From: a virus | Lineage: Duplodnaviria > Caudoviricetes | IMG/VR virus record: IMGVR_UViG_3300033463_000056 | Span: 30,279-94,278 of that record | Reading direction: 5' to 3' (one strand) | DNA length: 64,000 nucleotides | Part shown: positions 6,715 through 64,000 of the stretch, piece by piece | Layout of the letters: each line of letters starts with the position of its first letter | Numbering within the stretch: the stretch's first letter is position 1 | Notes under the pieces: generated by a model | What the model saw: the letters and a program-made list of their open reading frames with translations, nothing else | What the model was told of the DNA's origin: nothing | Database searches by the model: none | Program-made: the position numbers and the translations under genes

Positions 6715-9171
6715 TTATTTCTTTGTCGTAGATGACGTGCCTTTCATTCGGGCAATCTGTTTTTGAGCTTCGATTTTCTTGTACTCGATATCTTTCTTGT
6801 CTTTCCTTTCGTTTTCCTTTTCGTGTAACTCTCGATCAAACTGTCTGATTTGCTCAGCAAGTTTCTCTCTTTCGATATCAAGTTTTTCATGCACTAACTG
6901 CTCGTCGTTTTCCTCCGCATAGATACCGAGGCGGAGGTACTCGGCCTGGGAATTAATCTTCGCAACTTCAATCTTGGTTTCGTTGTCGCGCTGGTTGAGA
7001 ACATCCTTCTGCTGCATCTCCATCTGCTTCGCCTGCATATCAGCCTGGATTTTCTGCTGCTCAATCTGCTGTTGCTGCTGGGCGGCTTCCTGCTGCTGGG
7101 CCTGAATCTTCTTTTCAGAATCTTCAATAGCACGAATCTTTTCCTGCATCGAAAGCGAAGAATACATCTTCAAAAGCGTAGAGAACGGCATACCGTTCTG
7201 AGCCATAGCCTGACCGATGGTGTCAATCTGGGAATTCAGCTTCTGCGTATCCTGCGAGTTATCAACGACAAGACCATAATCGCATTCGCAGAATTCATCG
7301 CCATCAATCTCCATAATCTTTCGGGAATAATCCGAAAGGATATATTGGAACTTCTTGCTTCTTCCACGGAGTGCCGCCTTCGCATACTCAATAAAGCATT
7401 CGATAACTCGCTTCTTGGTATCGTCGTGCTTCTGGAACAGCCAGTCTGTGATATACGAAGACTGCAGGACAGCCCTTTCAATGCCGCCTACAGTCTCACG
7501 ATTGTATGTGTTTCCTTCCCGCTGGCGATTGATACCGACAAGATCCGACATCGCATCCTTCGTCCACTGAAGCAGATTCATGTAGTTCTGGATGGACTGT
7601 CCCCAGTCAGCATCGACATAGCCTTTGCTCGCATTATTCAGACCACCAGCCAGCTTTCCGGTAGCCGCACCCTTGTTTCCTTCATTGAACGAATCCTTGA
7701 TGAGAACCTTGTTGGCGCGGGCAAAATACATCCATTTCTCAACCTCCCAGTTCTTCGGCTTCATCGCAAGATCCATCTCGAGAAGCTTTCCCCAGTTGGT
7801 AGCGATAAGGTCAACAAGTTTCGCGTGGACGGCATCGTACATATAGTTGTACGGCTTCATCATATCCACGAGGGAATAAGGACGCGATTCGTTGAGGTTA
7901 TAGATGGTTCCGATAATACCGAAATGACATCTCGATGGATTGGAGATGCTGTTATGCTGGACAAGACAAGGACGCATCTGAACGTAGATGTGGTCGCCAA
8001 TCTTCGTACCTTCCCAAGCTTCGTTCACCCAAAGCGGAGTAGCTTCCTCGCCAGCCGCCTTATCGGGGATATAGGTCTCCGGGTAGAAGTCGAACACTTC
8101 CTCGCCGGTAACAGGGTCATAGGATTTGACCTTGAATATCTTTCTCTGGGACTTCCACCAGACGTGGATAACGCGGACATTGCCAGCCACATCATAAGGA
8201 AGAAGGTTCGTTCCGAACCCGCCGTTCAGTTCAGGGAACGCATCATATACATAATGGAGATTATCGCCGTTGATGTTGATTCCGTTCTCACCGACGAATG
8301 CGCCCTGCATGAAGGGATAGGCGTCGTTCACGCTGCCTTCAGGAAGTGTGGGTTCGGAGCCGCCGAATTCGGGAATCTCATCGGAGAGCCACTTGACATC
8401 TTTCGCGGAAAGATCATCATAATAGGTATCCAGAATCCTTCCACGGCTCCAGTAGTCCTCGTAGATGATGACATCGGCATCTTCGATACGGTTCGAATAA
8501 CCTGTTCCGAAAGCGCGAAGCTTGATAGGATTCGCCCTGTCAACAAACGGTTCGCCACCAACGATTCCGAGCATATAGATTTCCTGACCGACACAGGCGT
8601 CAACGAAACCGTCGTTGAACTTCTGTTTCCAGTTCTGCTCCTTGGAGTAATGATGGATAAGCTCATTTGCCCGTATCTCGCGCAGGTCCTGCCAGTTGTA
8701 GTTGTAATACTCCTGGGTTTCCTGCATCTGTTTCTGGGCCTGCTGGTCATCTATTCCAGCATCTTCGACGATGTTCTGGACAGTCTGGAAAAACTCCTGT
8801 TTCTTCTGTTCCTCAATCTGCGAAACGGAATAAGGATTGGTGACAATCACCTTCCAGTCAAACACGCGGGCTGCTTCCTCGCCACGAAGCGTGTTTATCT
8901 TGGAGTTCATTATCGGATAATGCTGGATCTTGTCCGGAATGAAAGCGGAAGCAATGTTGCCCGGATTCAAGACAGCCGCGATATCCTCCATGTGGATGAT
9001 GCCGTTCAGAAGGTCATAGTTGATCTTCAGGTTGACGGTACTCGTCCTTACCGGAGAATAGTTAAAATATGAACGCACGCATCCCCAGTCCACACACTTC
9101 TTACGCCAGGCATCTCCCTTCGATTTGAAGGGCAGCCTCTGGGCGGGGAACGTTGTCGTACTTAAATCCAT
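6715..9171 (-). CDS. portal protein (crAss-like)
   Basis: 818 aa, FPAQRLP..K...W start, IQHYPIMNSKIN.L.GEE, Q-rich C-terminal coiled coil, adjacent to terminase. Confidence 0.92.
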   Translation of the reverse strand: MDLSTTTFPAQRLPFKSKGDAWRKKCVDWGCVRSYFNYSPVRTSTVNLKINYDLLNGIIHMEDIAAVLNPGNIASAFIPDKIQHYPIMNSKINTLRGEEAARVFDWKVIVTNPYSVSQIEEQKKQEFFQTVQNIVEDAGIDDQQAQKQMQETQEYYNYNWQDLREIRANELIHHYSKEQNWKQKFNDGFVDACVGQEIYMLGIVGGEPFVDRANPIKLRAFGTGYSNRIEDADVIIYEDYWSRGRILDTYYDDLSAKDVKWLSDEIPEFGGSEPTLPEGSVNDAYPFMQGAFVGENGININGDNLHYVYDAFPELNGGFGTNLLPYDVAGNVRVIHVWWKSQRKIFKVKSYDPVTGEEVFDFYPETYIPDKAAGEEATPLWVNEAWEGTKIGDHIYVQMRPCLVQHNSISNPSRCHFGIIGTIYNLNESRPYSLVDMMKPYNYMYDAVHAKLVDLIATNWGKLLEMDLAMKPKNWEVEKWMYFARANKVLIKDSFNEGNKGAATGKLAGGLNNASKGYVDADWGQSIQNYMNLLQWTKDAMSDLVGINRQREGNTYNRETVGGIERAVLQSSYITDWLFQKHDDTKKRVIECFIEYAKAALRGRSKKFQYILSDYSRKIMEIDGDEFCECDYGLVVDNSQDTQKLNSQIDTIGQAMAQNGMPFSTLLKMYSSLSMQEKIRAIEDSEKKIQAQQQEAAQQQQQIEQQKIQADMQAKQMEMQQKDVLNQRDNETKIEVAKINSQAEYLRLGIYAEENDEQLVHEKLDIEREKLAEQIRQFDRELHEKENERKDKKDIEYKKIEAQKQIARMKGTSSTTKK

Positions 9172-9240: not shown

Positions 9241-11517
9241 TTACTGGTCGAAAGTTGATTTATATTGAGGTCCTAACTTTTCGAGATGCCGCTTCCAATC
9301 CTTGTCGAAGAAATCGTCATCGGAATCATCCGGTTCGGTCTTCTGCACCTCATCGCCATCGCCGTATAGGATTTGATACTGATGACGATAAAGCATGACT
9401 TGCATAAGGGCGCTGACCCTATCCGTATTTGCGCCACCGCCATACGAAATCATTTCCTGAATCATGGCTCTGCTCCATAACCTATAAGCGCCAGGAACCA
9501 AAACAGTCTGTACTTCCCCATTTTCGTCAACCTGTTGTTCGACAGTTTCTTTCAAGAGCCAGTCGCGAATCAAATCCTGAGCGAAAGCGATAATGGCGGG
9601 TAGTGCCTGAACGCCCTTACTTGAAGAACCCGTAGTAGAATACTTCACCATCTCCCGCTCCTTAAGGTACTCTGGGCAGTCGGCGAGCATGTGTAATGAG
9701 TGTTTCTTCGCAAAATACGCATAAACATTTTTCTTGTTCGCCTCAGGCATACACTTAGCGTTATAGAAACGGCACATCAACCAAGCCATACGGCAGTTAT
9801 CCTCATTAAGCGGAAGCCGACCTGTATATTCGGCGACCGGAATATCCTGAAATAAGTCAAACATTACACAGGAAAATAACGATTCCGAATCTGCCTCTTC
9901 ATCATTTTCAACTGGGTCAATACCTAAAACGTATCTGTTCGGAGTGTTTTCGGTCCCGGGTGCAGGCATCTGGAAAATCTCCAATGCACCATGAACTCCA
10001 ATGGTATTCTTATGGTTCTTGTTTATCGGCCATTCACGAATTGGAATATCATTCGTCGTTATGAACTTCACACTACCGCCAGATTCGATAAGATTACCGA
10101 TATACATCTTATCATAAAAATGAGGAGACTGGTCTATCTGGCGCAGGCGTTCATTCAGCAAATCCGTCGGGAACAATCCACGGCGAACACGAAGAATTGC
10201 TTCTTCAGGGGTTATAGGACGCTGAGCTATGACACTAAGCAGTGTTTCTGGCTTCGACTTGCGAACACTGTTTCTATTATTCAAGATAGCAAGAATAGAC
10301 TTAATCACATCAGAATTGCCATCCTTATCCATGCATCCAGTGCGAGAAATATAAGAAGGAAAGAAATATCCGAACTTATCTCTACCCTTTCCGCTCATAT
10401 CATACACGTTCTCTATTGCATAGATTTCATATGCGTCCGGATCATACAGTATCTCCCTTGCTCCAGAGAAATCCGAATCCTTATCGCCGGCGGTTCCAAC
10501 GAGATATATCAGGGCGAACACTTCTTCACCATCCTTTACCGAGTCACGAGTATTATTATATGTGGCGAGTAGATTTTTGAACGAGCCCATTTCCTCAAAT
10601 AGGATAAATCCTCGTTTACCACGAACCTTCGCTTCGTCATCCTTGACGGCTACGCCCATAACAGAGTTTTTTGAACCATCGTTTACCCCATTTGAATTTA
10701 TCCTTCCGGCAATCCATAGCATATCGGACGGTCTATTGGTGCTGAGAAGACGAGGAAACTCCGTATTCGAAGCAACAAAATCCTTCATCTTGACAAATTT
10801 ATCAAGAGTACCATCTTTTTGGGAAAGATATTCTTTCGTATAACCGGCAAGAATCGTAGTAACTTCAGTCTTTGAAAACTCATTTTCACCAAGAACGAGA
10901 TTGTGTGACATTATCCCACCAAGAGTGTAAGATTTACCAGCTCCTCGACGAGCAAGTTCGATACAATGCTTATGTGCTTTGCGAGCTTGGTCTATATAAT
11001 GAAAACGATAGTAAACACCCTCCCAAAATAATGGGAATCCTGGTATCTGCGCAGATATTCCAGTCTTTGGGTCTTTCTTCGTAATCTTAATACGACAATA
11101 ATTCAGATACCAGTACATAAGTCCGGGTATCCATTCGCCGTCAGATTCCCTTACATAACCTTCCCTGCATCGTTTCGCTTCCTCCATAATCCATTTGCCA
11201 TACTCGCTTCGCGGATTCGGATTCGGTTTAAGAAAAGTATAGCAACCATTCTCCTCATAGAATTTTGCAGCTGGACGGAAGAAATCCGTATTCTCGAGGA
11301 TGTGTGGATGGGCAATATCGACTATAATCTTACCATCTCCGTCTCTCGGCAGGTCTTTCGCTTTGGGCCTATCTGGAGAAATCATCCATTGCAGGAGTGG
11401 GACATTATTCATAAAATCCAAAAATTGCTCCCTGACCCAAGGGTCGAGAGAAGCAATTAAGGATTCCGTAACCGGAGTTTGGAATTGATTAGTTGGTATA
11501 AAAACAGTGTCAGTCAT
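9241..11517 (-). CDS. terL: terminase large subunit
   Basis: Walker A ARRGAGKS, Walker B ILFEEMG, coupling motif GTAG, nuclease LGIDP ... DRVSA. Confidence 0.95.
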   Translation of the reverse strand: MTDTVFIPTNQFQTPVTESLIASLDPWVREQFLDFMNNVPLLQWMISPDRPKAKDLPRDGDGKIIVDIAHPHILENTDFFRPAAKFYEENGCYTFLKPNPNPRSEYGKWIMEEAKRCREGYVRESDGEWIPGLMYWYLNYCRIKITKKDPKTGISAQIPGFPLFWEGVYYRFHYIDQARKAHKHCIELARRGAGKSYTLGGIMSHNLVLGENEFSKTEVTTILAGYTKEYLSQKDGTLDKFVKMKDFVASNTEFPRLLSTNRPSDMLWIAGRINSNGVNDGSKNSVMGVAVKDDEAKVRGKRGFILFEEMGSFKNLLATYNNTRDSVKDGEEVFALIYLVGTAGDKDSDFSGAREILYDPDAYEIYAIENVYDMSGKGRDKFGYFFPSYISRTGCMDKDGNSDVIKSILAILNNRNSVRKSKPETLLSVIAQRPITPEEAILRVRRGLFPTDLLNERLRQIDQSPHFYDKMYIGNLIESGGSVKFITTNDIPIREWPINKNHKNTIGVHGALEIFQMPAPGTENTPNRYVLGIDPVENDEEADSESLFSCVMFDLFQDIPVAEYTGRLPLNEDNCRMAWLMCRFYNAKCMPEANKKNVYAYFAKKHSLHMLADCPEYLKEREMVKYSTTGSSSKGVQALPAIIAFAQDLIRDWLLKETVEQQVDENGEVQTVLVPGAYRLWSRAMIQEMISYGGGANTDRVSALMQVMLYRHQYQILYGDGDEVQKTEPDDSDDDFFDKDWKRHLEKLGPQYKSTFDQ

Positions 11518-40229: not shown

Positions 40230-40634
40230 ATGCCTCGCGGTAAAGATCTGACCACCACTGAACTGAACGAAATGAAGGGCCTTTTGAATGAAGGCTTATC
40301 TTATGGCGAAGTTGCCGAACTTCTCGGAAGGACGAAGAAGTCTGTTGCCAATGCCGCTTTCAGATATAAGCTGAAAGACAACAATGCTATCAAGAAAAAG
40401 AAGGAGACTCCAAAAGAATGGGAGAGCGAACTTGTCAAGAAGGTTATCGAGAATACCAATAAACCCGAAGGGCCCGTCGTGAAACAGCAACCCGTCAAGG
40501 AAAAGACGCTCAAGGATTTCAATCCGAGAGATATCATCAAGTATATGTATGAACTTGGCTATCGCATCGAGGACAATAAACTCGTGTGCTATGTCAAGCA
40601 GACAGTTAATGTAAAAGATATTGTAAATGGCTAA
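40230..40634 (+). CDS. HTH DNA-binding protein
   Basis: GLSYGEVAELLGRTKKSV HTH. Confidence 0.75.
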   Translation: MPRGKDLTTTELNEMKGLLNEGLSYGEVAELLGRTKKSVANAAFRYKLKDNNAIKKKKETPKEWESELVKKVIENTNKPEGPVVKQQPVKEKTLKDFNPRDIIKYMYELGYRIEDNKLVCYVKQTVNVKDIVNG

Positions 40635-54838: not shown

Positions 54839-55015
54839 ATGAGCAACGAAGAAAATGAACTTGCTTGTTCTGGAACGGGCTGTCGTTTCAGGTTGGTCTG
54901 TGAGCGCTATATCAAGTGGATGACATCAGACGAAGCTGACATCGCTGCATTAATTCCTTTGTATGATAAAGGAGATTGCCCGAATTTGATTCGAACAAAA
55001 TTCTATGGCGGATAA
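54839..55015 (+). CDS. small Cys-rich protein
   Basis: ATG inside the site G right arm; CSGTGC....CERY...C. Confidence 0.6.
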   Translation: MSNEENELACSGTGCRFRLVCERYIKWMTSDEADIAALIPLYDKGDCPNLIRTKFYGG

Positions 55016-55487
55016 CATTATAAATGGCGGAATAATGGACAACAAACTCTTAAACAGGTTGACAAAGCAAGACATTGGCGAGATCGCGGATATGCTGAAA
55101 TCCGTAGATTCACCTGAGATTGATTCAGAGAAAAGAAATTCGGAAGTATTGAAACAGTTGAGGAAATCGAACGAAGATTATAAGCCGTACTGTAAAGACA
55201 GATATAAGGTTCTTCTCGAAATCGCAGAGAAAGTAACCGAGCATCATTATCAGGATAACCGTCAATTCGGGAACGTTCTTATCAAATGCCTCGTGTCAAA
55301 CCGGCTTCGTGACGAAGAATACACACTCAGTGAAATTGGCAGGGCGATGAACAAGCATCATTCAACTGTGATGTTCTACATTGACAAGATGAAGGATATG
55401 CTCTCATTGCCGTTGATGTATGCCAATGAAATCAGGATGCGAAATCTATTCAATATTGCAATTGAAGAACATGATGGACAGGAATAA
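55005..55487 (+). CDS. HTH protein with DnaA C-terminal-like motif
   Basis: TLSEIGRAMNKHHSTVMFY. Confidence 0.65.
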   Translation: MADNIINGGIMDNKLLNRLTKQDIGEIADMLKSVDSPEIDSEKRNSEVLKQLRKSNEDYKPYCKDRYKVLLEIAEKVTEHHYQDNRQFGNVLIKCLVSNRLRDEEYTLSEIGRAMNKHHSTVMFYIDKMKDMLSLPLMYANEIRMRNLFNIAIEEHDGQE

Positions 55488-55683
55488 GTTCTGGCGAACA
55501 GCTCTCGCAATTTCACTATGTATGATATTCCTCTGGCTTGGTTTCTGTTCCTGGAACTGGGCTTTCGAGCTTTCCGCAAAGACAAATCTGCCCGTAAAGG
55601 CATTTGATGTCATTGCGTGGTCACTTTGCTTTATGGGTTTCTTGTCTATCTGTATTGTGAACGAATGGAAAAGAAAGAACTGA
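55471..55683 (+). CDS. two-TM membrane protein
   Basis: Two hydrophobic helices. Confidence 0.55.
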   Translation: MMDRNKFWRTALAISLCMIFLWLGFCSWNWAFELSAKTNLPVKAFDVIAWSLCFMGFLSICIVNEWKRKN

Positions 55684-55880
55684 CGCTTGAAGAATCCATC
55701 TACACGCTGATGCGAAAGATGGACGGGAATACGAAACTTGTCGTTCCACTTCAACACTGGGCGCTGGTAAGAAATTACGCTGGACAGCTGCAAAGGGACT
55801 TCGATGCAAAGTACGAGGTACACAGGATGAAGACAAGGAATATGAAATACGACCTTATCTTGATAACACGAAGTCAATAA
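55665..55880 (+). CDS. small basic protein (recombination directionality factor candidate)
   Basis: Convergent on and overlapping the integrase 3' end; function inferred from position only. Confidence 0.45.
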   Translation: MEKKELTLEESIYTLMRKMDGNTKLVVPLQHWALVRNYAGQLQRDFDAKYEVHRMKTRNMKYDLILITRSQ

Positions 55881-57072
55881 CGCGCCTGTTGGCCTCATCT
55901 ACTTTGCTTTGTTCGAACTTCACATAGATTAAGGTAGTCCTATTCCCAGCCGAATGCCCCAATGCCTGACTTATGACATCCAATGGTATTCCGGCTTCGT
56001 AGGCGAAGGTCGCCCAGCAGTGTCTGGCATAGTAGGTCGAGATTTCCGGGATGACTGGTGTGATAATCCTTTCCGGCTTCGGCGGAGCGAACAGGTCATC
56101 AGGGTCGGGAACCATCTCCCATCTGACGTCTCCGATTTCCTTCAGACGGTCATTCATCTCGTGGGCGAAGTTGCGGTAGTCCTTGCAATGGTCCATCGCC
56201 TCCAGCAGATAGTCCTTCCCTTCATATCTTTTCAGCAGTTCCTCGGCTTCCGGTTCTATCCTGATTGAGTAGCGTTTGTGTGTTTTTTCGCGTATGTATT
56301 CCAGCCTGCCACCACTAACCTGTTCCTTTTTAACCAACAGCAGGTCCTTGGAATTCATCCCGATCAGGTAGAACATCAGCTTGAAGTAATCACGGTAACG
56401 GTTATTCGCCGGTGTCGTTGGATAGTCGAGGAACTTCCTGAAAAGTTCTATCGGGACGCTCCGTTTCTTCGTCGGTTCCTGCTTGATGGAGAAGTTCCTG
56501 AAGGCATAGGACAGGTTGTACTGGTGTGAACCGTAGTTGCACACCGCACGAAGGGAACGGAGATAGATGGCGCGACCATTCACCCCCTGACTCTTCGACA
56601 AAAACTTTTCAAACTGATGAATCCATTTCAAATCTATGTTTTCCATCTTCAACGACTTGCCTCCGAACGCAAGAACCTTCGACAGGGTAGCACGATAGAT
56701 ATCCTTCGTTCCATCAGAGATATCCGTAGCAAGATATTCCGCAAACAGTTCTGACACCAGATGACTGGAGACCCTCGGTTTATTGGATGTGATATGCGCC
56801 TTGATATCGGAGGCGGACATCCGATCAAATCTTTCATCAAAAGAAAGCAAGGCAATAGCGCGGTCTATCTTTCCTTTCTTTTCCTGGAGGGCGGCGTTCT
56901 GGGTTTCAGAGCCAACGGTTTTAATCCTTTCTCCGTCCCACTCGTTTGGAGCGACACGGATACCGGTGGATACCGTAGTCATAGTACGGTTATGAAAGAT
57001 ATGGATAAGGATAGTACCCTTACCGTCAGCGGCTCTGCCCCGCATATCGAGGTAGAATTTTGTGCTTGCCAT
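55855..57072 (-). CDS. int: tyrosine integrase (Bacteroidetes type, arm-binding plus SAM-like plus catalytic domains)
   Basis: KFYLDMR..DG...I.I.H...STGI.V..EW arm domain; YIREKT; YYARHCWAT; ISQALGHS..TT.IY. Confidence 0.93.
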   Translation of the reverse strand: MASTKFYLDMRGRAADGKGTILIHIFHNRTMTTVSTGIRVAPNEWDGERIKTVGSETQNAALQEKKGKIDRAIALLSFDERFDRMSASDIKAHITSNKPRVSSHLVSELFAEYLATDISDGTKDIYRATLSKVLAFGGKSLKMENIDLKWIHQFEKFLSKSQGVNGRAIYLRSLRAVCNYGSHQYNLSYAFRNFSIKQEPTKKRSVPIELFRKFLDYPTTPANNRYRDYFKLMFYLIGMNSKDLLLVKKEQVSGGRLEYIREKTHKRYSIRIEPEAEELLKRYEGKDYLLEAMDHCKDYRNFAHEMNDRLKEIGDVRWEMVPDPDDLFAPPKPERIITPVIPEISTYYARHCWATFAYEAGIPLDVISQALGHSAGNRTTLIYVKFEQSKVDEANRRVIDFVLSR

Positions 57073-57100
57073 TTGATTCTCTTTTCGCAAAGAAAAACAA

Positions 57101-57350
57101 TCTGCAATCAATCTGCAAGTTTTTCTGCAAACGGGCACAGAAGGCTGAAAGATTGACGAAAAATAAGAAAATCTTGGCAACCAAGTAACAAGATTGTTTC
57201 ATTACCTGATTGCCAAGACATTACAAGGTGGAGATAGTCGGATTCGAACCGGCGACCCCATGCTTGCAAAGCATGAGATAAACGACAATAACAATTTAAT
57301 AACCAAGCAGATACAAAATCTTTGGATTTATTCTGCAAATAAATCTGCAA
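57101..57350. other. attP: tRNA-Ala(TGC) 3'-half core with TCTGCAA arm-type repeats
   Basis: Minus strand 57275-57227 CATGC TTTGCAA GCATG GGGTC GCCGG TTCGAAT CCGAC TATCTCC ACC; TCTGCAA at 57101, 57112, 57124 and 57332, 57344. Confidence 0.85.
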
Positions 57351-57352
57351 AA

Positions 57353-57679
57353 ATGAACTCAAGATTACAAGATGTTCGCGACAGCGCATTGAATTCAATC
57401 CGCCTGGCTCTGCGGAGCAACAACATTGAACTCATAGAGGCATATGACATTGAACCGGGTTCCAGTCCTATTATTCAGGAAGACCCGTTTGATAATAATA
57501 ACACTTATACTCTGGACAGGATAATTCTTGACGGAGACACAATTTACTTCGACGGAAGTAATGCTGCCCAGAATTGCTCCTGGAACGATGAAAACATTCC
57601 GACTGATGCTTTGCTTGACATTGCCGAGTATCTGGATGATTACGCTGATGAAATCAGAGAATTTGCAAACGAAGAATAA
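57353..57679 (+). CDS. hypothetical acidic protein
   Basis: Start MNSRLQD after attP. Confidence 0.6.
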   Translation: MNSRLQDVRDSALNSIRLALRSNNIELIEAYDIEPGSSPIIQEDPFDNNNTYTLDRIILDGDTIYFDGSNAAQNCSWNDENIPTDALLDIAEYLDDYADEIREFANEE

Positions 57680-57680
57680 T

Positions 57681-57902
57681 ATGGAACGAATAGTAATCAT
57701 TGATCACGACGAACATATACTTTTCATCGAAGACCTTGACGAAGATGGACTCGAGAAGAAATACGGTGGTGAGGAAGAAGAATATATCAAGGACAATTAC
57801 AATCTGGGTAAGAACTGGTCATGGGAATTCATTACAAGAATCGAGTATTATCCCTGCGACTACCAAGACCCAATTGAGCTTGAGCCTAAAGACTTATTAT
57901 GA
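57681..57902 (+). CDS. hypothetical protein
   Basis: Start MERIVIID. Confidence 0.55.
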   Translation: MERIVIIDHDEHILFIEDLDEDGLEKKYGGEEEEYIKDNYNLGKNWSWEFITRIEYYPCDYQDPIELEPKDLL

Positions 57903-58372
57903 ACTACGATCTGACAGATAAACAGCAGAGAAGGAAGTTCGTCAAATACGCGAACAGCCTTCTGAAGAACAAACGCACACTGGTTTCGTTGGAAGACAAG
58001 TCCAACCGCACTCTTTCCCAGAACTGTTACATCCATGTATTGTGCAGGATACTTGCACAGGACACAGGCGTAACGGAGTATTATGCCAAGCAGGTATATT
58101 TCAAGGAGCTGGCAAATGCTGATATCTTCGTTCATCCTACAAAGGATGCACTTACCGGAAAGATGATACGAACTGTTCGTAGCTCGGCTGATTTGTCCAT
58201 CCAGGAAATGGCAAAGGCGATTACGAACTTCAGAAACTGGGCGTCGGAACAGGGATATTATCTTCCAGAGGCTACGCTTAATGACGATGGGACGATGACA
58301 TTCAATGATGAACGAGACAAGGAAGCGTTCCGTCAGGCGGAGATTGAAACAAGCAAAGAAATAGGATTGTAA
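57899..58372 (+). CDS. NinB/Orf-like recombination protein
   Basis: RTLSQN.Y.H...RSSADLS..EM..AI..F..WA. Confidence 0.7.
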   Translation: MNYDLTDKQQRRKFVKYANSLLKNKRTLVSLEDKSNRTLSQNCYIHVLCRILAQDTGVTEYYAKQVYFKELANADIFVHPTKDALTGKMIRTVRSSADLSIQEMAKAITNFRNWASEQGYYLPEATLNDDGTMTFNDERDKEAFRQAEIETSKEIGL

Positions 58373-58968: not shown

Positions 58969-59376
58969 ATGAAACGAATTATATTTCTCTTGTTCTTTAT
59001 CATTCCAATATTAGCTTATTCGCAGGAAGATACAATGCAGAAGCGTAAACAAGTTGGAACAAATGTAACGAAGGTAGAAGATCTTTATAAAATAGCCCGT
59101 GACCCATCCGTTACCGGATATAGTCGCGATTTGTCGCACGAAGCAGCGGAAGCTGGCTGGGGAACATCAAAGTGGGACAAGGGGGCATTTGACCCAGAAA
59201 AAGACTTGAAAGAAATGCGTCGCATTGAACGGGAAGATTATTCGGCCAATCAATTTAAGATTGTCGGTATGGTTGTAGGAATAGCAATATTAGTATGTAT
59301 CATCGCCTATTTTGTCAGTAAAAATGAAAAGAAAAAGAAGAACTCCGATTGGAATTCTTCTTCTACTCTTGATTAG
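58969..59376 (+). CDS. exported membrane-anchored protein (moron)
   Basis: Signal peptide MKRIIFLLFFIIPILAYSQ, C-terminal TM plus basic tail; own TATATTTG promoter element. Confidence 0.7.
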   Translation: MKRIIFLLFFIIPILAYSQEDTMQKRKQVGTNVTKVEDLYKIARDPSVTGYSRDLSHEAAEAGWGTSKWDKGAFDPEKDLKEMRRIEREDYSANQFKIVGMVVGIAILVCIIAYFVSKNEKKKKNSDWNSSSTLD

Positions 59377-62300
59377 AACTGCAAGTCATTCTTGTAATAG
59401 TTTATCAGCGGTGTCGGATCGATGACGTGCTGAATCTGCTTGTAGAGCGACAGGATAGGGAGCTCGAAGATAATCTTCTCTGCCTTGGACTTGCCCTTGA
59501 AAGCGCCGGACTTAACTTTACTGGTATATGTTCCGGGCCACAGGAGATAAGGAATACGGAGAAGTCTTCTCATCGGCTCGATAGCCGCAATAGGACTGGA
59601 TAGCGTATTGGTAATCTCCTTGAAAATAAGCGGGGAAGGAGCGACGGAACCCATTTCATTACGCAGGCGGAACATCTGGTAAACAGCCATACTATCAAAC
59701 CATCCGCCGAAGTCTTCCTCATTCTTCTTCTTATCAGGACCGAACTTCGAATGAAGCATCAGGGCGAGGCAGATTCCCATTAGCGTTGAAATTTCAACAA
59801 GGGCACGGGACAGATTCGATTTCTCGTAATCAGTCATCTTGGACTTGTTGAGCTGCATATTTGCGAAAGTCTGTTTTACCCGCTGAATGACATTCATCGC
59901 GACACGGGCGCCTTCTTCATCGGTAAGTGTTTCCCTGAAGGATTCGCCGACCCAGTTCGCAACAGTCCTCCAATAGCCTTCACCTTCCTGACCCGTAAGC
60001 GGGTTGTAACCAGCTTTGCCATATCTACGGACAATAGCCGGATGCATCCATTTACGGTACATCATCACAAGCGAACCGAAAGCGTATTGCTGGATTGCGC
60101 TCTTATCGTCGGAGTTGTATATACCCTGCAAACGGAAGTTCGTTCCGATGACGAGCTTGGCGAATTTTTCCTCCGCCTGCTTGTCGATGGGAGAACCATC
60201 AGCCATCACATATCCGTCCTTGATTTGGAGATAAGCTCCGGTATTATCCGGACCGGAATACTTAACTTCAAAAGCATCCCAGAGGTTTGTGTTCTTCCAA
60301 TTGCCATTGGCATCCTTATACTTCACTCCGGTATTCTTCGCAATGGCCAGAGCCGTAGTAAGGGCAAGGAAGTCTTCACCCATATTCAATCCTGCGAACA
60401 TAAGGTTCGTATTGAATGTTCTGGATGCGCGGCTCTTGGTAAATGACTTGTTTACCTTACCGTTGTTCTGATGAAGATCGTAGCGTTCCGCGAACAGAGA
60501 AAGCTTATCACGAGATTCCAAAGCCCCAGTTTCAAGGATTCGCCTTCCGCTATGCTTCATATATTCCTTCGTAGCCCAAGCGAAATTGGCAGCAGTGAAA
60601 GCGCCCTTACCTGCGGTTTCAACTGCGATGTTCATCATACCGGCTCCGACATTGGAAAGACGCTGTTGCAGGTTGAAGGCCATCTGTGAGTAAGATGCAG
60701 CGGCATTCACCGCATTGGAAACCTTTCGTGCGGATACCCTTGTTCCAAGGAGGCCACCCTCCTGCTTCTCAAGCTTTCCGTACAGATGCATCTGGAAGAA
60801 ATCATCAAGAGCCTTCTGGATGTTCGTGTGCATCTGCTTCTTGGTGAACGGTTCGTCGTAAGACAAATCATCTTCGGTATTCCCGGTCTTGACGCGCTCA
60901 ACGAGTTTTTGCCATCCGGACTTCTGCTGAATTTCGCGGTTCATAGACATATACCGAGCGTTCTCAAGCATTGCGAGGACCTGATTAAGCTCGTCATATT
61001 CATAACCCATCGAAGCATAAGCGATGATTGACATTGCCACATCATCGGTCATATCATCCCAGCTCTCGTTCTTACCCTTACTGACGTACTTGATAGGAAG
61101 ATTATCAATCTTATTTCCCTGGAAGTCAACTTGGACGGAACGCTCTTCCTTATCGGCTTCTTCGGAGTTATCGAGGAAAGCGTTCTTGACGTTTTCGCCG
61201 AAAGCGTCGAGTTTTCCGTGAATTCCATCAGCGCCCTTAATCCTGTCAAAACCGAACTTACGAAGGGCCACAATACGATATTCGCTTTTGATGAGTGCAG
61301 GAGGCAGACAATCGTCGATATCCTGCTTGATAGCAATCATCTCCTTATAGAAATCGTACTGGGGTTTGGAGAGAGTGAGTTTCGCTTTTTCGTTCGAGAT
61401 GTAATCTCCGGTACGATGCATCTTGCCATCTTCGCCCTTCTCCATCTCGAACATGAAGCTCTGGTCCTTCGAACCGGTTTCACGAACGAGCTTATCAAAA
61501 GCAACAACAACACGACGGTGAGCTTCGGCTGCTCTCTGGCGACCATTAATCTTCGCTTTTCTCGTTACATCATCAAAGGCGGCGAGGACATAATCACCGC
61601 AATCAGCGATAGAACTCAGCAGACGGGTAGCAAGACTGATATCACGGTCTCCGTGGCGAGCCATTTCTTCGATGGTCAACACCTTTCCGCGATCCTTACC
61701 AAGGGTACGGGTAATCCCGTGTTCTCCATAGACATTGGCAAGCATCCGTTCGAAGAAACGCATACCGAGGCGTTCGTACTTCGTCATAAACTTATCCATC
61801 TCGTCCTTCACATCTTTCTGGATGGAAGTAAGCTGACCGGAAGGAATGATTTCTCCACTTTCGGTAGCGTCATTGATAAGTTTCATCACGCTGGCGTAGC
61901 TGTACAGCGTGTCGCGGACCTTATTCAGTTCACGGCAGATGGTATTCACCTTGTCTCCGTACATCACCTTGTTATCCAGCGAAGCCTCAGTATCCTTGAG
62001 GAACTGCAAGGAGTTCTTCAGGTAATCGACAAGCGCGGATTCAACCTTATGATTCTTGATTGCGTCTTCGAGAATGGAAATCTGCTTCTCGGTAGCAATC
62101 ATCGCTGCGCTTTTCTGGTCATTATTGATAGGACCGGCACGCTTCTTCAATAGCGCGAGGCGCTTGCTTTCGCGTTTCAGGATATCGTTCAAGAGTCCCT
62201 GTTTCTCATTCAGATTCTTCTGAACTTGAGCGAACGAATCGGAACGGGAAATATTCTCGAGGCTCATATCATCGAGAAGCCTTCCAGACATGATATCTCG

Positions 62301-64000
62301 TGCGAGTTTGGAAGACAGCTGATTGGCATCCATAATCGCATCAAAAACCTGCCAGGAACCAATCCTGCGGAGGAAGTTCTTGATAGCGTCAATGATACGC
62401 TTGATAAGCGGGCGCGTCTCAGGAGTTTCAATTCTCTGTTCACGAAGGAGGGTTTTGGCAAGGAGTTTACCGGCAGCTTCAAGACGAAGTTTCTCTGCGT
62501 CATCCTTATACAGCTCCTTATATTCCTCATACTGGCCTTCGAAGGCTTCCTTCATTGCCCGTTCGTTTCTCTCGAGTTCGTTGAGGAGACGACGAACGAG
62601 TTCGTGATCGTGACCAAGCATCTCCAAGGCAAGGTGAGCGAATTCTTCGGGCAATGCTTCTTCACCCTTGTATCCTTCAGCAAGACGGATAAGTTCACGA
62701 AGTCCGTGAGCATTGATTTGTGTCAGCTTGCTGAAATCCGTAATACCTTGAGCAGCAAGACGGGCATCCGCTTCTGTGAGTGAACCGATTGCAACACCAA
62801 GTCGAGGAAGAATTTCTTCGCGGAGTTTCTTGTTCAACGCGACATAAGCCTTCTGTTCACGGGACTGACGGACCGTATCAGGAGTCCAATTTGCGGTTTT
62901 AGTAACAACGTGTTTGTTACCGTTCTCGTCAATTTCGATTCGGGTAAGATAAAGAAGCTCGCCTTCTTCCGCTTCCATCGGGGTAAACAACGATTTACTC
63001 TGCGTTTCAGCCTGAGGAGTTTCTCCACGGGCGCGACTATTAAGAACGGCATCGATACCACGAGAAGACTCCATAGCGGCTTCCGTAGTAGTAGGCTTCT
63101 GTTCATCTTTCTTCGCAAGTGCGGCGTCATTCTTTTTCGCATTGATTTCAGACTGTGCCGCGTACTGGTCAAAGACATCAGCCCACTCCTTGACTTCCGT
63201 TCCGTAGTGTTTGACGGGTTTCTGATAATCATCCTCGGTAAGAGAATCTGCGATTGCAGCTCTTTCTTCCTCTGTCATCTGGTCTCCGCTGATATCGGAA
63301 GCATCGGAGTTCTTGATGTTCGAAGTGCCAAAATCTCCCCAAGCGGAATCGAGACCAGCCTGATGCGGGATAATATTATTGAAGTCATTATCCGGCTCAT
63401 ACTGGACAGTTACCTGATTGCGCTTTGTCCGGTGTCCAGTCTTCGGAACCTCAACGAGGTCATTCAAAGTCTGATCGTCATTCAGAACAGGATAGAAGAC
63501 TTTCTTCTCGGATTTACCCTTGACCGTGAACATTACATGGTCAGTGATATTTCCGAATTTCTTCTTAGCCTCGGCGTCTTTCTTCTCGTTAAGAAGCTTA
63601 ATCTTCGAATCGAACTTCTTATTCAAGATTTCGCGAATATAGTTCGGAAGCTCATCAACGGTGAATTCACGAACAAGACGCTGGTCGCCCCAGTGATTGG
63701 CGTGAAGCTGTAAGAAGAAGTTCGTCCCGTCCTTTGCAGTGTCCGTAAATTGAGCGTTGTCACGCATCGCATTAAGCGCATCAAGATAACCGGGAACCTG
63801 CTCAAGAACGGTATAAGGAGCGAAGTGTGCGAATTCGTACATTCCGTACCCGAAACCGCTGGTGAAAGCATTATACTTGAACAGATCGATGGCCATCTTT
63901 CGGATTTCTTCGAACGGAGAAACCGACATCATCGCCCAGTCATAGGTAATCTTTTCGCCGAAGTTATCCATCGTGACACCGCCTTTCTGGAAGAACAGGC
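59373..64000 (-). CDS. 3' part of a giant crAss-like virion protein (virion RNA polymerase/ejection protein class); 5'-truncated by the window
   Basis: Frame stays open to position 64000; over 1540 aa; A.DLF.Y...SGF.....F.H..P, LPEEFAH, G.Y...DK....Q...G.LVMMYRKW; catalytic RNAP motif not in the window. Confidence 0.7.
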   Translation of the reverse strand, partial: LFFQKGGVTMDNFGEKITYDWAMMSVSPFEEIRKMAIDLFKYNAFTSGFGYGMYEFAHFAPYTVLEQVPGYLDALNAMRDNAQFTDTAKDGTNFFLQLHANHWGDQRLVREFTVDELPNYIREILNKKFDSKIKLLNEKKDAEAKKKFGNITDHVMFTVKGKSEKKVFYPVLNDDQTLNDLVEVPKTGHRTKRNQVTVQYEPDNDFNNIIPHQAGLDSAWGDFGTSNIKNSDASDISGDQMTEEERAAIADSLTEDDYQKPVKHYGTEVKEWADVFDQYAAQSEINAKKNDAALAKKDEQKPTTTEAAMESSRGIDAVLNSRARGETPQAETQSKSLFTPMEAEEGELLYLTRIEIDENGNKHVVTKTANWTPDTVRQSREQKAYVALNKKLREEILPRLGVAIGSLTEADARLAAQGITDFSKLTQINAHGLRELIRLAEGYKGEEALPEEFAHLALEMLGHDHELVRRLLNELERNERAMKEAFEGQYEEYKELYKDDAEKLRLEAAGKLLAKTLLREQRIETPETRPLIKRIIDAIKNFLRRIGSWQVFDAIMDANQLSSKLARDIMSGRLLDDMSLENISRSDSFAQVQKNLNEKQGLLNDILKRESKRLALLKKRAGPINNDQKSAAMIATEKQISILEDAIKNHKVESALVDYLKNSLQFLKDTEASLDNKVMYGDKVNTICRELNKVRDTLYSYASVMKLINDATESGEIIPSGQLTSIQKDVKDEMDKFMTKYERLGMRFFERMLANVYGEHGITRTLGKDRGKVLTIEEMARHGDRDISLATRLLSSIADCGDYVLAAFDDVTRKAKINGRQRAAEAHRRVVVAFDKLVRETGSKDQSFMFEMEKGEDGKMHRTGDYISNEKAKLTLSKPQYDFYKEMIAIKQDIDDCLPPALIKSEYRIVALRKFGFDRIKGADGIHGKLDAFGENVKNAFLDNSEEADKEERSVQVDFQGNKIDNLPIKYVSKGKNESWDDMTDDVAMSIIAYASMGYEYDELNQVLAMLENARYMSMNREIQQKSGWQKLVERVKTGNTEDDLSYDEPFTKKQMHTNIQKALDDFFQMHLYGKLEKQEGGLLGTRVSARKVSNAVNAAASYSQMAFNLQQRLSNVGAGMMNIAVETAGKGAFTAANFAWATKEYMKHSGRRILETGALESRDKLSLFAERYDLHQNNGKVNKSFTKSRASRTFNTNLMFAGLNMGEDFLALTTALAIAKNTGVKYKDANGNWKNTNLWDAFEVKYSGPDNTGAYLQIKDGYVMADGSPIDKQAEEKFAKLVIGTNFRLQGIYNSDDKSAIQQYAFGSLVMMYRKWMHPAIVRRYGKAGYNPLTGQEGEGYWRTVANWVGESFRETLTDEEGARVAMNVIQRVKQTFANMQLNKSKMTDYEKSNLSRALVEISTLMGICLALMLHSKFGPDKKKNEEDFGGWFDSMAVYQMFRLRNEMGSVAPSPLIFKEITNTLSSPIAAIEPMRRLLRIPYLLWPGTYTSKVKSGAFKGKSKAEKIIFELPILSLYKQIQHVIDPTPLINYYKNDLQF

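Follow-up and report, generated by a model that had tools for sequence, protein, structure and literature searches.

The stretch of DNA considered here, referred to below as the window, comprises 64,000 nucleotides of a tailed-phage genome (Caudoviricetes), namely bases 30279–94278, the right-hand part, of the 94,278-bp IMG/VR record IMGVR_UViG_3300033463_000056. It carries a gene for a tyrosine integrase of 405 residues (int; 55855–57072, − strand, with its ATG at 57072) and, upstream of this gene, a 250-bp region (57101–57350) that is arranged as arm, core, terminator and arm, and whose core is a copy of the 3' half of a tRNA-Ala(TGC) gene. Taken together, these elements very probably constitute an intact, unintegrated phage attachment site (attP) with its own integrase, carried by a crAss-like phage.

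Anatomy of the attachment site

The core occupies 57227–57275 on the − strand (49 nt) and corresponds to positions 27–73 of the tRNA plus CC. It begins with the anticodon stem (CATGC/GCATG), which encloses the loop TTTGCAA with the anticodon TGC, and continues with the variable loop GGGTC, a T arm that has one C:A mismatch (GCCGG-TTCGAAT-CCGAC) and the acceptor strand TATCTCC, which contains the U70 typical of tRNA-Ala and is followed by A73 and CC. The core is present once in the whole 94,278-bp genome, lies approximately 155 bp upstream of int and is read in the same direction as that gene. ARAGORN detects no complete tRNA in the window, and the tRNA piece is therefore only a half.

Both arms are built from direct repeats of the box TTGCAGA, which reads TCTGCAA on the + strand. 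The arm proximal to int (57101–57130, − strand) contains three boxes, at 57101, 57112 and 57124, which are 11–12 bp apart and lie 29–58 nt upstream of the int ATG, while the distal arm (57332–57350, − strand) contains two, at 57332 and 57344, which end 3 nt ahead of the ATG of a rightward open reading frame (ORF; 57353–57679). Since the proximal boxes are so close to the start of int, the integrase bound to them may also regulate its own promoter. The motif TCTGCAA occurs 19 times in the window, where 9.5 copies are expected, and the chance of finding five copies on the same strand within 250 nt is of the order of 1e-10 per position at the background rate of the window.

Between the core and the proximal arm there is an intrinsic terminator (57158–57219, − strand), which starts 8 nt past the end of the core and consists of a 21-bp hairpin (57219–57171) and a U-rich tail. 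The RNA of the hairpin is predicted to fold with a free energy of −27.6 kcal/mol (z −5.6, with 0 of 200 shuffled sequences as good), and the structure is also recovered by a terminator scan. The 12-mer AACAAGATTGTT (57189–57200) is located at its tip.

A preliminary description of the same DNA had reported a 49-bp tRNA 3' half running from the anticodon stem (TGC) to ACC, three plus two direct TCTGCAA repeats around it and one mismatch in the T stem (GCCGG/CCGAC), and had interpreted this layout as that of an unintegrated attP. Each of these features is found as described, all five repeats being at the attP and on the same strand, and the interpretation gains from the comparisons discussed below: the core matches intact tRNA-Ala genes of metagenome contigs, in which the same C:A pair occurs, and the layout is base-exact in four other attP copies.

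Conservation of the module in related phages

Three close relatives of the phage are present in IMG/VR, two of them with terminal repeats and 100% complete (G403, 99,880 bp, and G405, 98,613 bp) and the third a linear record that is 82% complete (G404, 79,413 bp). Each has a single copy of the core, an integrase 70–71% identical and a large terminase (TerL) 59–60% identical to those of the window. Another attP lies on a 2-kb metagenome contig, L010, in which the same core has non-tRNA sequence in front of it and a phage-type arm behind it, together with an integrase that is 79% identical.

Five attP copies were compared, those of the window, of L010 and of three phage genomes of 79–100 kb (L004, L005 and L006). 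Relative to the core, distal TGCRGA boxes are found in all five copies at −76 and −64, with the variant TTGCAGG at −64 in L006; proximal boxes, counted from the tRNA end, are found at +99 and +111 (at +110 and +122 in L004), and a third proximal box, at +122 to +139, in three of the five. The mean identity of the attP alignment is 74%, and the arm boxes form invariant columns in it. A hairpin followed by a T-run is located at the same place in the four copies outside the window, with a sequence that is partly or wholly different.

The cores themselves vary: where the window has CATGC...GCATG and GCCGG/CCGAC, L004 and L006 have CTGC...GCAG and AGGGG/CCCCT, and L005 mixes both. These differences are paired changes that keep the tRNA helices (at 28:42, for example, A-T versus C-G), which argues that the cores follow tRNA alleles rather than drift. 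They would then track real tRNA-Ala alleles, as expected if each phage matches its own host.

The location of the module is conserved as well. The preliminary description had noted phage genes on both sides of int and the attachment site, and the order of these genes is indeed the same in L004–L006: a giant − strand gene and a NinB-like gene lie on the side of the attP, and on the other side there is a small convergent ORF, with exonuclease and ATPase genes further on. With its fixed position in the gene order, the core present only once and no cargo, the module is an old and fixed part of the phage lineage and not a nested element.

The target gene and its host

When a metagenome collection was scanned with the core pattern, leaving the three variable T-stem pairs free, 31 contigs were obtained, of which 30 carry intact tRNA-Ala genes and one is the attP of L010. 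On 28 of the 31 the gene is an intact tRNA-Ala(TGC) whose 3' half is identical to the core at 48–49 of the 49 bases, GCCGG/CCGAC included. Because these intact genes have the same T stem, its C:A mismatch is a trait of the host tRNA itself and not the product of decay of the phage copy. The identity begins with the anticodon stem's first base, where CATGC is preceded by GAGCA in the host and by TATCT in the phage, and stops 1–2 nt after A73. Such a block, running from the anticodon stem's 5' strand to the tRNA's 3' end, fits the anticodon-loop sublocation of tRNA-gene integration, and Williams is said to have described this pattern in 2002 as that of integrases which cross over at the anticodon loop. 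Two contigs that start 2–3 nt before the core (L016 and L029) were considered as junction breaks and rejected, given that their extra bases are of the host type and they are thus copies of the bacterial attachment site (attB).

The host locus was read on eight longer contigs with Rfam and ARAGORN. Its order is the 3' end of a 16S rRNA gene, visible on the five of the eight contigs that reach far enough upstream, followed by tRNA-Ile(GAT), tRNA-Ala(TGC), a hairpin terminator and protein genes. Within up to 14 kb downstream of the target tRNA-Ala, these contigs show no 23S rRNA gene. Among the products of the neighbouring genes are BACON-domain proteins, a SusC-like receptor and a GH3 enzyme, and an aspartokinase of the locus groups with those of Bacteroidota. 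Judged from these neighbours, the grouping of the aspartokinase and the lack of a nearby 23S gene, the host is an uncultured lineage of Bacteroidota whose 16S operon is unlinked from 23S. Since the operon ends with the target gene, an insertion of 94 kb would not part 16S from 23S, unlike what would happen in a linked operon. An unlinked 16S operon of uncultured Bacteroidota can be seen on contigs L018, L024, L025, L030, L036 and L039.

The preliminary description had also held that the core identifies the host, and had proposed a search of Bacteroidales tRNA-Ala genes with it. This comparison succeeded in the 28 independent metagenome contigs mentioned above and failed in the sampled genomes of 802 Bacteroidales species: a 47-nt core had no match with up to three mismatches in 401 genomes from the family of a Prevotella metagenome-assembled genome (MAG), nor with up to two mismatches in 401 genomes from the order of that MAG. 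MAGs usually lack the DNA that adjoins 16S genes, and hence the negative result in these 802 genomes is weak evidence. The core thus leads to the host as far as uncultured Bacteroidota, and to no closer name.

Most of the host tRNA-Ala genes have a hairpin terminator of their own behind them. Just after it, contigs L011, L019, L021, L026 and L039 show a recurrent GGAGAT(A/G) and then a GC-rich hairpin, and L019 has in the same place TGGAGATAGTCG, an inverted copy of the tRNA 3' end. On L027 (76–140, tRNA-sense) two direct TTACGCACCA repeats behind the tRNA-Ala replace the usual terminator context; another element inserted at the same attB may have them as its arm sites.

The integrase

The protein encoded by int unites arm-binding, core-binding and catalytic domains, as do the heterobivalent (lambda-type) integrases. 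Its N-terminus matches the Pfam family Arm-DNA-bind_5 (PF17293) with 24.6 bits (cutoff 22.6), its middle the SAM-like Phage_int_SAM_5 (PF13102) with 38.8 bits, and its C-terminal part only Phage_integrase (PF00589) with 26.1 bits, just below the cutoff of 27.1; in PHROGs it is annotated as an integrase. Its earlier identification as an arm-domain tyrosine integrase therefore holds, with a catalytic match that lies under the cutoff. A longer frame of 441 residues, extended to a TTG, crosses the arm boxes, and its start is unlikely to be the genuine one.

In an alignment with 18 homologues (55–86% identical) the residues R227, N240, K266, Y347, R350, H373 and Y383 are invariant, and the C-terminal RHCWAT...LGHS...IY aligns to box II of the XerC-like structure 4a8e. 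Of the canonical set R-K-H-R-H/W-Y, the protein has K266, R350, H373 and Y383, with N240 in place of the first arginine and Y347 in place of the histidine of HxxR; the invariant R227 is located 13 residues before N240. In IntDOT-like enzymes a residue other than arginine is typical of the first-arginine position, the pair in IntDOT itself being S259/R247. Matched against these general features of IntDOT, the first-arginine trait makes it likely that the integrase belongs to the IntDOT-like subgroup.

The group formed by IntDOT of CTnDOT, IntN1 of NBU1 and IntN2 of NBU2 shares with the phage protein the combination of Arm-DNA-bind_5, Phage_int_SAM_5 and a divergent catalytic domain, and IntDOT shares with it, in addition, the non-arginine residue with an arginine 13 positions upstream (here R227/N240). 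NBU elements also target the 3' ends of tRNA genes. Unlike the integrases of CTnDOT and the NBU elements, the one described here resides in a virus and not in a conjugative or mobilisable element.

A search of a large protein collection (E 1e-40 or better) gave 654 relatives of the integrase. The best 120 of these are at least 54% identical to it, and at least eight of the best 120 are encoded on contigs of 93–103 kb. No integrase found outside the crAss clade is more than 39% identical, and the nearest of them are located at the ends of ordinary IMG/VR viral contigs of 12–62 kb, the layout that is expected of prophages; identity with the integrases of temperate Bacteroides phages is 37.6% for BS-TP2 and 35% for F1/F2/F4. 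An integrase 29% identical is present in GenBank MT835494.1, a 99.8-kb 'Bacteriophage sp.' from human faeces which, judging by its length, may be another genome of crAss size with an integrase.

The phage genome

IMG/VR classifies the record as a genome with direct terminal repeats and 100% complete, and an exact repeat of 127 bp is present at both ends. Given the terminal repeats and the completeness, the record is a free, fully assembled phage genome and not a prophage excised from a chromosome.

The phage had been described as crAss-like from the outset, and its marker genes agree with this. The TerL (9241–11517, − strand; phrog_6681) is 49% identical, over 94–95% of its length, to its counterparts in crAss001, Kehishuvirus and PhiCrAssBcn isolates, and all of its 147 matches are to crAss-like phages or to their Flavobacterium and Cellulophaga relatives. 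The portal protein (6715–9171, − strand) matches phrog_6547 end to end (E 9e-131). The capsid protein, encoded just left of the window (L123:4251–5780, − strand), is 52% identical to that of DAC17 and 48% to that of crAss001, while identity falls to 37% for Cellulophaga phi14:2 and to 24–26% for crAss-like genomes of other families. By these three markers the phage is assigned to Crassvirales, closest to Steigviridae, a placement that rests on best-match identities of 48–52% to members of that family (TerL and capsid). It is less than 60% identical to any GenBank phage, which, in terms of best-match identities only, suggests a separate genus or subfamily. The genome size and the division into a virion and a replication block are likewise similar to those of Steigviridae (crAss001, DAC15/DAC17 and PhiCrAssBcn), although the cultured members of the family have neither an integrase nor an attachment site (PMC6235969).

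Proposed mechanism of integration

The integrase and the attP together are, with good probability, a site-specific integration module of the working type in a Steigviridae-like crAss phage. It is well known that lambda-type integrases with an attP of the form P-O-P' target the 3' part of tRNA genes, as in P4, P22 and mv4. The module resembles these systems in the three domains of the integrase, in an attP some 250 bp long whose arm sites are repeated to either side of the core, in a core that extends from the anticodon stem of a tRNA to its 3' end, so that the gene would be restored on insertion, and in the adjacency of int and attP. It differs from them in that its carrier is a 94-kb crAss-like genome of the podovirus type and not a lambdoid or P2/P4-type phage, in that its five arm boxes all have the same orientation, and in that no Xis or repressor is recognised.

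By analogy with the lambda-type and the CTnDOT/NBU-type integrases, the TTGCAGA arm boxes would be bound by the N-terminal domain of Int, the symmetric anticodon stem (CATGC/GCATG) would be contacted by the core-binding and catalytic ones, and strand exchange between the attP and the host tRNA-Ala(TGC) gene would take place in or beside the 7-nt anticodon loop. Since the phage core covers the sequence from the anticodon stem to the 3' end, the phage copy would supply this part of the gene and the rebuilt tRNA would have no base altered. In the inserted state, the hairpin of the phage would stand in for the host terminator of the 16S-tRNA-Ile-tRNA-Ala operon and would shield the co-directed int from read-through of the operon. 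In this scheme the recombination, the place of the crossover, what the terminator does and the existence of stable lysogens are inferred, on the basis of the observed anatomy, the match with attB, the conservation in five copies and the fixed position.

A broader proposal is possible and rather improbable as a whole: a sizeable gut clade of Steigviridae-like phages, with more than 120 integrase clusters, would be truly temperate and would insert at the end of a 23S-unlinked 16S-tRNA-Ile-tRNA-Ala operon, with int placed behind the phage terminator and downstream of the strongest promoters of the cell. Leakage through the terminator could then couple the supply of Int to the growth rate of the host and, if this were true, could tie the stability or the excision of the prophage to that rate.

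Evidence for and against integration

That the lineage forms prophages is likely, as far as can be judged from its genes and attachment site, and several results weigh against it. Among the 31 contigs that match the core pattern there is no attL, in which the whole tRNA would be followed by the phage arm and int, and no attR, with the distal phage arm, the core and the host terminator, so that the junction check suggested in the preliminary description yielded no chimeric contig. TerL has no match in 301 sampled Bacteroidales genomes; a search of genome contigs with the integrase gave no integrated copy, only integrases 33% identical that are located by tRNA-Ser; and every one of the clade's four full genomes in IMG/VR is a free form. 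No repressor, antirepressor or excisionase was found above threshold with Pfam and PHROGs among 20 ORFs between 33.5 and 59.4 kb, most of which match no family, and the small helix-turn-helix proteins at 55005–55487 and 40230–40634 are both below the Pfam cutoffs. In addition, the asparagine (Asn240) at the canonical first-arginine position and the tyrosine (Tyr347) at the HxxR histidine depart from the canonical set, the former in a way that is typical of IntDOT-like enzymes. The searches for integrated copies were of partial coverage, and the claim that the lineage is temperate, made in the preliminary description, received no support from them.

The 33%-identical integrases belong to two Prevotella MAGs (L002 and L003), in each of which a complete tRNA-Ser(GGA) is located about 170 nt upstream of the integrase, an arrangement that an inserted element would show. 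Scans of IMG/VR for a full tRNA-Ala joined to phage DNA gave one unrelated phage only, L124 (IMGVR_UViG_2061766007_001346, 177 kb), which has a complete tRNA-Ala(TGC) of its own with the same anticodon stem and a different T arm, unrelated to the attP; the full core of the L004 type had no match in the IMG/VR scan.

The lack of attL, attR and prophage copies and of a recognisable repressor or excisionase, the free form of every full genome seen and the absence of lysogeny genes from cultured Steigviridae (PMC6235969, PMC8375218) would all suit a relic, that is, a module inherited from a temperate ancestor and kept by inertia or for some other use in present phages that do not integrate, be they lytic, in a carrier state or plasmid-like. 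This is nevertheless unlikely, since the core of a relic would drift, yet the core is identical to living host genes at 49 of 49 bases, sister phages carry different, internally compensated tRNA-Ala alleles, and the arm boxes, their spacing and the catalytic residues show no variation within surroundings of about 74% DNA identity. Even less probable is a role in the maintenance of an episome, in which the recombinase would resolve multimers of a circular or plasmid-like form at the adjacent site, in the manner of Cre/lox of P1 or Xer/dif. The phage-plasmid lifestyle proposed for the prototypic crAssphage (bioRxiv 10.1101/2024.03.20.585998) speaks for such a role, as does the failure to find integrated forms, but the resolution of multimers needs no exact tRNA 3' half that tracks the alleles of the host, and neither arm-type sites and an arm-binding domain nor a terminator past the end of the tRNA.

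The remaining explanations concern the origin of the parts. The nearest out-of-clade integrases are found in other mobile elements and prophages of Bacteroidota, so that the gene was probably acquired horizontally at some time, and it could be thought that integrase and attachment site are a small, separate mobile element with its own boundaries inside the phage genome. This is very unlikely: with one copy of the core per genome there are no flanking repeats, and the module, 1.5 kb long and without cargo, lies between the same phage genes in genomes whose TerL are only 59–60% identical. A separate inserted element, which the preliminary description had named as the finding that would overturn it, is thus not what the single core, the fixed position and the conserved gene order indicate. 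Finally, tRNA genes are frequent in crAss-like and other large phages, L124 with its own tRNA-Ala being an example, and the tRNA piece might be a decayed phage-encoded tRNA gene that lies beside a recombinase by chance. This hardly deserves credence, given that the truncation is at the identical base in five attP copies and the lost part has left no trace, while the part that was kept shows 100% identity to host genes and has conserved boxes around it, each at a fixed distance.

Integration in crAss-like phages

The interest of such a module lies in the fact that crAss-like phages are among the most abundant viruses of the gut, and that their persistence without killing off their hosts is a standing question, the cultured members being described as devoid of lysogeny genes (PMC6235969, PMC8375218). 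The notion that characterised crAss-like isolates do not integrate, from which the preliminary description started, is in line with these descriptions of cultured phages and overstated as a measure of novelty, for crAss-like genomes with integrases or in integrated form are on record (PMC8241571, PMC13503771, PMC12454387). Thus, in the MGV catalogue of Nayfach (2021), 48 of 9,395 putative crAss-like genomes (0.51%) have an integrase and a host flank (PMC8241571); a mouse catalogue of 2026 finds modules with integrase, excisionase and repressor to be rare in Steigviridae, with an enrichment in Intestiviridae and the zeta group (PMC13503771); a study of pigs lists 12 crAss-like prophages (PMC12454387); and epsilon crAss-like phages have repressor and antirepressor genes, with prophage relatives in Parabacteroides (PMC11054128). 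In its main text Yutin 2021 (PMC7886860) leaves integrases unmentioned, though a different paper names it as a source on them. The literature on rumen and slurry viromes yielded nothing on integrases in crAss-like phages, and no published description of this attP, its tRNA-Ala target or its clade was found.

The earlier integrase-bearing or integrated genomes also carry lysogeny genes or host flanks (PMC8241571, PMC12454387, PMC11054128, PMC13503771) and, unlike the present case, are either reported as counts at catalogue level or placed in different families (alpha, zeta and epsilon). Since such rare genomes had already been recorded, current views are not overturned: integration systems are rare and already known in the crAss-like group. 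The main value of the module lies in its clean anatomy, its closeness to the cultured Steigviridae and its unusual target, a gene with which a 16S operon unlinked from 23S ends. An integrase of 405 residues, an attP of 250 bp and a defined attB of 49 nt form a clean and tractable set in a lineage close to cultured phages, with which crAss-like integration becomes directly testable and which could serve as a tool for site-specific integration in Bacteroidota. In addition, the distinctive tRNA-Ala allele that ends the unlinked 16S operon provides a host marker for a group of uncultured Bacteroidota.

Neighbouring genes

Convergent with int and overlapping its end there is a conserved ORF of 70 codons (55665–55880, + strand), whose product is 51–52% identical in L005 and L006; a GTG-extended version of the frame (87 codons, 55617–55880) has no match in Pfam or PHROGs. 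By its position alone, this ORF is a candidate for the directionality factor. A frame of 150 codons on the − strand downstream of int was rejected, the conserved frame at that place being the 70-codon ORF of the + strand. On the other side, the flank of the attP includes a frame of more than 1,532 codons (59373–63998, − strand) and the gene for a NinB/Orf-like recombination mediator (57899–58372, + strand; Pfam PF05772, phrog_72).

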